Below are positions 429-1,860 of a stretch of 64,000 nucleotides of DNA, one piece after another. The stretch covers positions 219,170,001 to 219,234,000 of the forward strand of contig OZ024740.1 of assembly GCA_964016885.1 (NCBI GenBank), written 5' to 3'. Source of the DNA: Eledone cirrhosa (Eukaryota). The position numbers and the translations under genes were made by a program. The notes under the pieces are model-generated. The model was given only the letters and a program-made list of their open reading frames with translations, was not told the origin of the DNA and made no database searches. Position 1 is the stretch's first letter. Every line of letters starts with the position of its first letter.

Positions 429-798
429 TGAGGAATGTGTCGATGGTATAAGAATTGGTGCCAATCCTTATCAATTCTTAAGTTAGACTCCAAACATTTA
501 ATAAAATCTCTTCATATGTTTGTACTGAGGTCCTTAAGGGGCCAATGGTTCTCCTGAACAAGGTTGATAGGGGAGTCGACAATCCTTTAACTGGGAAACA
601 TGACTAGCCTGTCTATATCCACTTTCACTCTCTCTCTCTCTCTCTCTCTCTCTCTCTCTCTCTCTCTCTATATATATATATATATATATATATATATATA
701 TATATATATATATATATATATATATATATATATATATATATGAAAGACGTAAAATAAGAAAATTTTAAAAATAAAAAATGAACTTACTAAAATTTTCA

Positions 799-878
799 CT
801 CCAACTAATTAGTTTCTGTAAGGGAATAAATATAGTTACGTAATGTAACTATAGAGAAGTCCTTACGTCATCAGGGAG
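799..878 (-). ncRNA. Type-I hammerhead ribozyme motif, family A
   Basis: Minus strand: ctcc-CTGATGA-cgtaagg...ccttaca-GAAAC-taatta-GTT-ggag; stem I ctcc/ggag; palindromic stem III. Confidence 0.8.
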
Positions 879-1335
879 CCTATTCTCAGCTAAGTTCCCA
901 GGCAATGCGCGGACACTAGGAACCCATATAAAATAATAATTCAGTGGATGGAATAAAGCTAGCGGGGACTAAATTCCAGGGCACTGAAAAAATTCACTGC
1001 CTACTTGGTCAGTGGCAAATTCTAAAGAATCAATCACGTGACACTGAGGTTAATCAGTTAGGAGTGGGGTGGTATTATGACAAGAGCCTAACTACTACCA
1101 TGAACCATAGCAGTAAATTTTGGCAGGTTTCGCTCAACAAATAATTTGGAGATAAATATAGAGAATTAGTATATCTACCAACATATGTATACAGATGTAT
1201 ACCCATGCTAGCCAATATATATGTTATGTCTTAGTACCTTTGTGGTTCTATGCAGGGGATGCAGAATAATTATATGAAAGACGTAAAATAAGAAAATTTT
1301 AAAAATAAAAAATTAACTACTTACTAAAATTTTCA

Positions 1336-1415
1336 CTCCAACTAATTAGTTTCTGTAAGGGAATAAATATAGTAACGTAATGTAACTATAGAGAAGTCCT
1401 TACGTCATCAGGGAG
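1336..1415 (-). ncRNA. Type-I hammerhead ribozyme motif, family A, second tandem copy
   Basis: Same motif 537 nt from the first copy. Confidence 0.8.
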
Positions 1416-1860
1416 TCTATTGTGAAAATTTTAGTAAGTTAATTTTTTATTTTTAAAATTTTCTTATTTTACGTCTTTCATATAATTGTTCTGCATCCCC
1501 CTGCATAGAACCACAAAGGTACTAAGACATAACATATATATTGGCTAGCATGGCTATACATCTGTATACATATGTTGGTAGATATACTAATTCTCTCTCT
1601 CTCTCTCTATATATATATATATAAAACATGAGAAGAAAGAAGAATACTGCGTGGTTGCACATGGGTTACATATGATAAAATTAGTCCTTCGTCAGTGATT
1701 TGCCAACCATCATTGATATTTCATCGCATTAAAAATCATATACCTCAGGTTGGTCCGAGCAATAACTAAAAAAAGTTATTGGGACCAGTAAATCACGTAA
1801 AGCGAGGGGGACAAGTAAACAACATAGAAGGATATATATATATATATATATATATATATA

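Follow-up and report, generated by a model that had tools for sequence, protein, structure and literature searches.

A high-copy non-coding repeat of the Eledone cirrhosa genome is very probably a non-autonomous Penelope-like element (a non-LTR retrozyme) that relies for its copying on a Penelope reverse transcriptase-endonuclease acting in trans. Four features of the family speak for Penelope copying: i) the occurrence in an insertion of one T1 and one T2 end, which are two fixed 3' ends in the ribozyme sense (T1 at position 741 of the window, the whole 64,000-nt stretch of DNA that was analysed, and T2 ~105-125 nt further 3'); ii) flanks of (TA)n; iii) arms of one lineage; and iv) covariation of stems on one strand. 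Moreover many intact Penelope ORFs of ~900 aa are present in the genome. On the other hand, long arrays are rare, the active ribozyme fold is less stable than the predicted minimum and no partner was found among the Penelope families sampled, all of which count against this explanation. The insertion footprint, the most informative feature of the family, was absent from an earlier note on this DNA, whose proposal of a retrozyme-like tandem retroelement, non-coding and with hammerheads, was borne out.

Anatomy of the locus in the window

The insertion at 741-1607 consists of two opposed arms whose outer ends both lie in microsatellite (Table 1). Hammerhead cores (CUGAUGA) occur on the minus strand at 868-874 and 1405-1411, and cleavage (GUU^GGAG) is predicted at 803/802 and 1340/1339. 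The earlier note's two hammerheads in one orientation, 537 nt apart around a non-coding unit, were recovered as type I hammerheads, with the spacing given by two pairs of anchors (799/1336 and 866/1403) and a longest stop-to-stop frame in the unit of 70 aa; T1-to-T1 spacing is 534 nt rather than 537 because of a 3-nt indel. The note's tandem at 741-1595 holds for the two ribozymes but not as a plain tandem, since 1422-1607 is an inverted arm, a copy of 741-799 plus 1149-1274. The upstream ribozyme is truncated 5 nt 5' of stem I and is without the GAGAA strand. As the E-box-like motif sits between the two ribozymes, the locus is a poor source of unit-length RNA, and the same position of the motif together with the missing GAGAA strand makes it probably a dead-end copy unless transcription comes from outside.

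The second insertion (78-81% identical to the copy at 741) is composed of a T1 arm at 45418-45803 and an inverted T2 arm at 45800-45976. It keeps the hammerhead core, as had been said of 45418-45965, but not the tandem hammerheads, as only one ribozyme (45486-45578) is found there. Its stem II is GCAATG/CATTGC for GTAAGG/CCTTAC, which confirms two double changes, and both copies have, as the note stated, the C-A apposition at the base of stem II and AATCACGTGACAC (1032-1044 and 45725-45737).

Table 1. Features of the hammerhead repeat in the window
Feature	Position	Strand	Basis
(CT)n(TA)n microsatellite at T1 end, insertion target	627..740	.	sequence
Arm 1, 1.27 monomers; 3' end at fixed site T1 (741), 5'-truncated at 1421	741..1421	-	
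Internal copy of ~120-nt tail (T1 to T2), with long hairpin (~1170-1221) ending just before T2	1149..1274	-	
Non-coding 537-nt unit between both predicted cut sites	803..1339	-	
Arm 2, inverted; begins 3 nt past predicted cut site, runs through T1 and tail, ends at T2 in (CT)n	1422..1607	+	
(TA)n at T2 end	1608..1623	.	sequence
Downstream type I hammerhead	798..887	-	cleavage and pseudoknot predicted
Downstream hammerhead: stem I	875-879/798-802		
Downstream hammerhead: core CUGAUGA	868-874		
Downstream hammerhead: extra C; extra A	867; 817		
Downstream hammerhead: stem II, with internal loop and distal hairpin	861-866/818-823		
Downstream hammerhead: palindromic stem III, ACUAAUUAGU	804-813		
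Downstream hammerhead: predicted cut GUU^	between 803 and 802		
Downstream hammerhead: possible pseudoknot, GAGAA with UUCUC	883-887 with 854-858		predicted
Upstream hammerhead; core 1405-1411, predicted cut between 1340/1339	1335..1421	-	
E-box-like TCACGTG within conserved ~25-nt block; candidate internal promoter element	1032..1044	.	
Second insertion, different lineage, (TA)n-flanked	45418..45976	-	

A large, dispersed and non-coding family

A 20-mer from the ribozyme had 9,418 exact matches in the 3.0-Gb genome, as compared with none for the reversed control, and a T1-proximal 20-mer had 7,517. A further 683 matches came mostly from a lineage with GGGAG (found in 95 of the first 100; control, 15). 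The tandem unit is ~520-560 nt; 71 full units measured 518-581 nt and fell into seven clusters at 88% identity, and an additional young lineage differed by 1.07% from its own majority sequence. Coding capacity is low, with a longest ATG frame over the 71 monomers of 43 aa in the median and 86 aa at most. The unit has a family mean of ~36% GC and is locally structured (z -4.1). TCACGTG was kept in 65 of the 71 monomers, and the block around it was conserved in seven lineage representatives; CpG retention was rejected as a mark of the E-box, all seven CpGs being kept in 57-68 of the 71 units.

Copies are dispersed and short (153-2213 nt in the position-ordered sample), and at least two same-strand ribozymes were found, by fuzzy match, in 13 of 53 position-ordered insertions with a ribozyme. 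One locus, L150, carries an array of 6.8 units (L150:1654-5401); a loop II allele common to units 2-6 is missing from the outer units, a pattern that hints at local expansion after insertion. Contigs from three runs of unspecified kind (one sample) have TA-flanked ends as expected of DNA, so these runs say nothing on expression.

One T1 and one T2 end in most two-armed insertions

Insertion ends were compared over 168 clusters assembled from best-identity hits, position-ordered pattern hits and variant-selected hits, after loci repeating one insertion (31 of 34 such repeats came from two 20-mer searches) and near-identical pairs had been dropped. Among the 108 two-armed insertions, 89 had one T1 and one T2 end, none had two T1 ends, one had two T2 ends and 18 had an unclassified end; the single T2+T2 case (L236) is a 75-nt fold-back which begins inside the tail. 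Single-strand insertions (n=57) ended at T2 (32), at T1 (22) or elsewhere (3), and the remaining three clusters were complex. (TA)4 lay within 30 nt of 114 of 116 T1 ends and (TA)n within 30 nt of 122 of 137 T2 ends; (CT)n followed 28 T2 ends and no T1 end. The tail hairpin, which ends just before T2, showed many one-sided changes of the kind that G-U pairing tolerates, with double changes in 5 of 32 pairs. This distribution of ends is the footprint of a Penelope "tail", as left when reverse transcription starts at two internal sites.

Both arms of an insertion appear to come from one lineage. The edit distance over stem II and loop II had a median of 1 within and 15 between insertions, some large within-insertion distances being read as fuzzy matches at junctions, and rare lineages carried 13-25 private alleles common to both arms. 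A pure fold-back model of the arms was rejected, as some opposed arms are without overlap (L044, L201 and L204) and either arm can be the longer one.

Arms exceeded one unit in 117 of 262 cases, two units in 14 and three units in one. This bears on the possibility that the copies are ordinary pLTR fragments, i.e., the 5'-truncated ends of an autonomous ORF-bearing Penelope element, which the earlier note had itself set against its retrozyme proposal. Such an origin is very improbable for the family, and for most copies it is largely refuted: although the end architecture is like that of autonomous Penelope elements, what follows in each of the 117 longer arms is the next unit and never an ORF, and tblastn with Penelope proteins found no ORF leading into the unit. 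Two of the 57 single-strand insertions (L083 and L196) do adjoin, with no (TA)n in between, the 3' region of an element with an ORF, but their neighbours belong to two different families, and 40 of the 57 such 5' flanks are TA-rich. At L083:2886-4222 a family arm directly follows the 3' end of a Penelope copy that has an ORF and is oriented alike, either by a template switch or by an adjacent insertion with a small deletion; the 3' region of this Penelope copy has two TCACGTGA motifs near CCAAT.

A predicted hammerhead with covarying stems and a C-A apposition

Over 145 ribozymes the core CUGANGA was intact in 132, GAAACTAATTAGT(T/A) was present in 129 and the three stems were 98-99% paired. 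Stem II occurred as GTAAGG/CCTTAC (63), GCAATG/CATTGC (36), GAAAGG/CCTTTC (9), GTAATG/CATTAC (8) and rarer types. In a set of 24 hand-picked diverse copies, double changes were found in 8 of the 25 base pairs of the ribozyme (one stem II pair had four pair types) and the distal hairpin in loop II also covaried; the covariation score was reached by none of 500 shuffles, a control that is inflated by the relatedness of the copies. The stem II covariation across genomic copies that the earlier note had looked to is thus present. The possible pseudoknot, a candidate stem I/stem II contact between GAGAA upstream of stem I and UUCUC in loop II, was 97.5% paired and showed no double change; hammerheads often have pseudoknots of this sort (PMC3088659). 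Rfam gave no hammerhead match over the whole window or over 760-1450; the ribozyme was therefore called from its motif and its covariation.

Strand-specific covariation across ~75%-identical lineages points to selection on RNA. It also bears on whether the repeat is a non-autonomous element mobilised by a LINE (e.g., RTE-like), or a DNA-level foldback or satellite with a vestigial ribozyme. LINE-like ORFs do lie in the window, L1 twin priming also yields inversions, and the alleles common to inner L150 units hint at local DNA-level expansion. Such an origin is nevertheless improbable, given the selection on RNA that the covariation suggests, the dispersed and short copies, and the two internal 3' ends, one per side, with read-through past both, which match a Penelope tail and not an element primed at its 3' terminus.

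The base of stem II sets this ribozyme apart. A C after A9 and, as a second extra nucleotide, an A before G12 were found in 140 of the 145 motifs, and stem II is not joined directly to the core (10.1-11.1 unpaired); other distinctive traits are a 3-bp stem III with a tetraloop, the distal hairpin of loop II and the possible pseudoknot. Penelope hammerheads are known to carry one additional base after A9 (PMC4209133), and U-U mismatches occur at the place in question (PMC7229834 and PMC3088659), both in motifs that are active or of the Penelope type; a literature search turned up no paper reporting an insertion there. Two readings of the C-A apposition are possible: the C may be the known additional base after A9, with the A as a further insertion, or the two may form a mismatch where U-U is known. 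It is a new pairing at a mismatch-tolerant position, retained as the earlier note held but less unusual than claimed there. An A-A lineage exists within the family. In the same genome, motifs 3' of the ORF of an autonomous Penelope family have U-U at this position (L101 and L125), and the hammerhead-like motif of that ORF-bearing family (L147:4697-5420, L101 and L125) carries a U3-A8 core swap.

RNAalifold and single folds favoured an inactive pairing of the core with loop III: the active fold was at -19.9 kcal/mol and the predicted minimum at -25.1 kcal/mol. The stem III palindrome, ACUAAUUAGU, could form a dimer duplex of -9.0 kcal/mol. Hammerheads with U17 cleave slowly. Because of U17, the C-A mismatch and the competing fold, the family ribozyme is probably slow.

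Read-through at the cut site and the question of a circular template

Arm 5' ends were more frequent than expected between 25 nt 3' and 4 nt 5' of the predicted cut site (39 observed versus 20.9 expected; 22 versus 7.1 on second passes), a zone that was chosen after seeing the first sample and overlaps the AAAATTTT palindrome. In the second sample alone the counts were 10 versus 6.5 (P 0.12), and 8 versus 2.6 on second passes (P 0.005). A zone 35-64 nt upstream of the cut site was also raised on second passes (14 versus 5.2). As a sign of self-cleavage the excess is indirect and confounded, and in the second sample by itself it is weak. Because ~89% of arm passes read through the cut site (39 stops in ~348), most templates are uncut or religated, two states which the arm-end data fit alike. 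Insertions of 1 nt at the cut site (4 of 29 loci) were considered as a ligation scar and rejected, at least two being explained by substitutions in the GGGAG lineage.

A stronger form of the Penelope explanation takes the classical circular-RNA retrozyme as the main route: efficient double cleavage would release the 537-nt unit, a host ligase would close it into a circle, and reverse transcription would roll around that circle. This is a serious contender which stops somewhat short of being probable. Several observations agree with it: i) tandem units within an insertion share one lineage; ii) in the young lineage, 6 of 76 private alleles were found in all covering copies of one insertion; iii) a cut linear monomer would have T1 ~60 nt from its 5' end, and most T1 arms are longer; iv) circles have been shown for coral, mussel and axolotl retrozymes (PMC7229834). 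On the other hand, uncut multimeric transcripts account for the same data, arms of more than two units are scarce (only 14 of 262), the cut site is without a scar, the predicted circle is ~60% paired and not rod-like, the two ribozymes of one arm (L067) look like different sub-lineages, and only one of nine Xenopus dimers cleaved in vitro (10.64898/2026.07.22.740005). That a circular monomer is a regular template is plausible but slightly on the doubtful side.

A more specific reading, which we hold to be rather unlikely, is that of a protein-free RNA circle of ~530 nt with two Penelope start sites of its own, set 120 nt apart by a conserved hairpin; a Penelope dimer would travel around the circle and use exactly one of the sites for each DNA end. 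The hammerhead would have a new core (C-A at the base of stem II, GUU site and pseudoknot), kept inactive while the core pairs with loop III and released when the palindrome brings about dimerisation.

Proposed copying by a Penelope protein

For the preferred explanation, copying in trans by a Penelope protein, we propose the following course. A multi-unit copy would be transcribed, probably from an internal promoter. The Penelope protein, probably as a dimer, would cut both strands of a (TA)n tract, and reverse transcription would start from each DNA end at its own internal RNA site, i.e., T1 or, ~120 nt further 3', T2. The two cDNAs would then join head to head, and failure of one of them would leave a 5'-truncated single arm. 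The competing fold of the ribozyme may be relieved by stem III dimerisation; as the ribozyme is probably slow, most templates would be uncut multimers or religated circles.

Comparable behaviour has been described for Penelope proteins and elements. One such protein, for which a dimer is predicted, cleaves AT-rich DNA on both strands and begins reverse transcription at two positions inside the RNA, which delimit the genomic tail; in vitro, hammerhead cleavage was not needed and uncut RNA was the main template (PMC11167929). Penelope-like elements form inverted 5'-truncated copies with a microsatellite bias and a 30-40 bp tail, often at one end only (PMC8557442). The protein of PMC11167929 starts without target homology, whereas T1 of the hammerhead repeat lies at a short TATA. 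An ORF-bearing Penelope family of the same genome has a ~35-nt tail at one end (L147, L209, L146 and L120), which in L147-type copies is demarcated by an internal (TA)n tract whose length varies. Resemblance of the T1 end to the L147-type end was not significant, 62 of 200 shuffles being equally good.

As to an autonomous partner, the family profile had no significant match to the ends of the ~seven ORF-bearing Penelope families sampled, which represent a small part of the 10,597 GIY-YIG candidates. The GIY-YIG search, long-ORF loci, profile and pairwise comparison and a diverged-lineage search likewise yielded no ORF-bearing relative among the loci sampled, and when a pattern was used that disallowed the usual base 3' of the cut, the 100 matches listed of 176 all looked like members of the family and included no ORF-bearing relative.

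Comparison with known retrozymes and Penelope-like elements

The family is a new family of metazoan non-LTR retrozyme, or non-autonomous Penelope derivative, and not a new kind of system. With the non-LTR retrozymes of Cervera and de la Pena 2020 (PMC7229834), as presented in the sections compared, it has in common non-coding tandem units, a type I hammerhead, GC below 50%, thousands of copies and coexistence with Penelope elements. It differs from them in i) its longer unit (520-560 nt versus 170-400 nt); ii) its arrangement, mostly one or two units in two opposed arms; iii) a non-canonical ribozyme with a GUU site, a long stem II and a C-A apposition at its base; and iv) being known here from DNA alone. 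With Penelope-like elements (PMC11167929 and PMC8557442) it shares the inverted 5'-truncated arm, a tail at one end, AT-rich or microsatellite targets and a hammerhead near the start sites, whereas compared with ORF-bearing Penelope elements it has no ORF and a tail of ~105-125 nt versus 30-40 bp.

Retrozymes have been proposed to be non-autonomous Penelope sequences by Li, Clavereau and Pollet 2026 (10.64898/2026.07.22.740005), with units of 51-972 bp and at most seven units in most families. In the portion of that work considered, the proposal rests on co-occurrence and pLTR homology in vertebrates, whereas here the link is an insertion footprint, and no pLTR homology was found among the families sampled. 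Penelope as the mover of animal retrozymes had thus been proposed earlier from co-occurrence and homology, and the present family adds a footprint in about a hundred sampled insertions; its near-strict rule of one start site per DNA end is an addition over the compared parts of the Penelope and retrozyme papers. Among the titles and opening lines of abstracts retrieved for cephalopod retrozymes or octopus Penelope hammerheads, no paper on this family was found. With about ten thousand ribozyme copies in several lineages, the family provides a short natural RNA for testing recognition by the Penelope protein, and it offers tests of whether a circle or an uncut multimer serves as template and of whether the C-A core variant cleaves.

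Other elements in the window

A Penelope insertion at 22657-26812 contains a 592-aa frame with reverse transcriptase and GIY-YIG (24491-26269), an inverted left arm and unequal ends (22657 and ~26812). Its family has many ~900-aa frames in the genome, and no hammerhead was found in its 3' region with the patterns used. For a Penelope protein in the window, the only relatives with a eukaryote name were from Octopus bimaculoides (59%). A second, broken Penelope-like family is present at 48430-50130 and 53313-55015, with fragments near 1876-2039, 4198, 6013 and 12470; towards its 3' end lies a motif resembling a hammerhead, with cores at 12529, 49945 and 54830. Further hammerhead-like cores (8137, 8450, 10503, 11182, 13339 and 13493) lie in small inverted repeats (7990-8606, 10330-10669, 11084-11295 and 13230-13603), the first three of them with U-U at the base of stem II.

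The window also holds a 9-kb tandem satellite (29463-38490) with a period of ~29/58 nt, and a patchwork of duplicated blocks at 46306-60076 that are 97-100% identical (for example, 50477-52113 with 57704-59335, and 48430-49752 with 53313-54637), representing either a recent duplication or an assembly artefact. Elements with a LINE-like reverse transcriptase, RTE-like by look, occur at 42368-44698, 55315-57653 and 60635-63947, two of the copies being 97% identical, and a tRNA match of 63 bits lies on the plus strand at 21984-22057.
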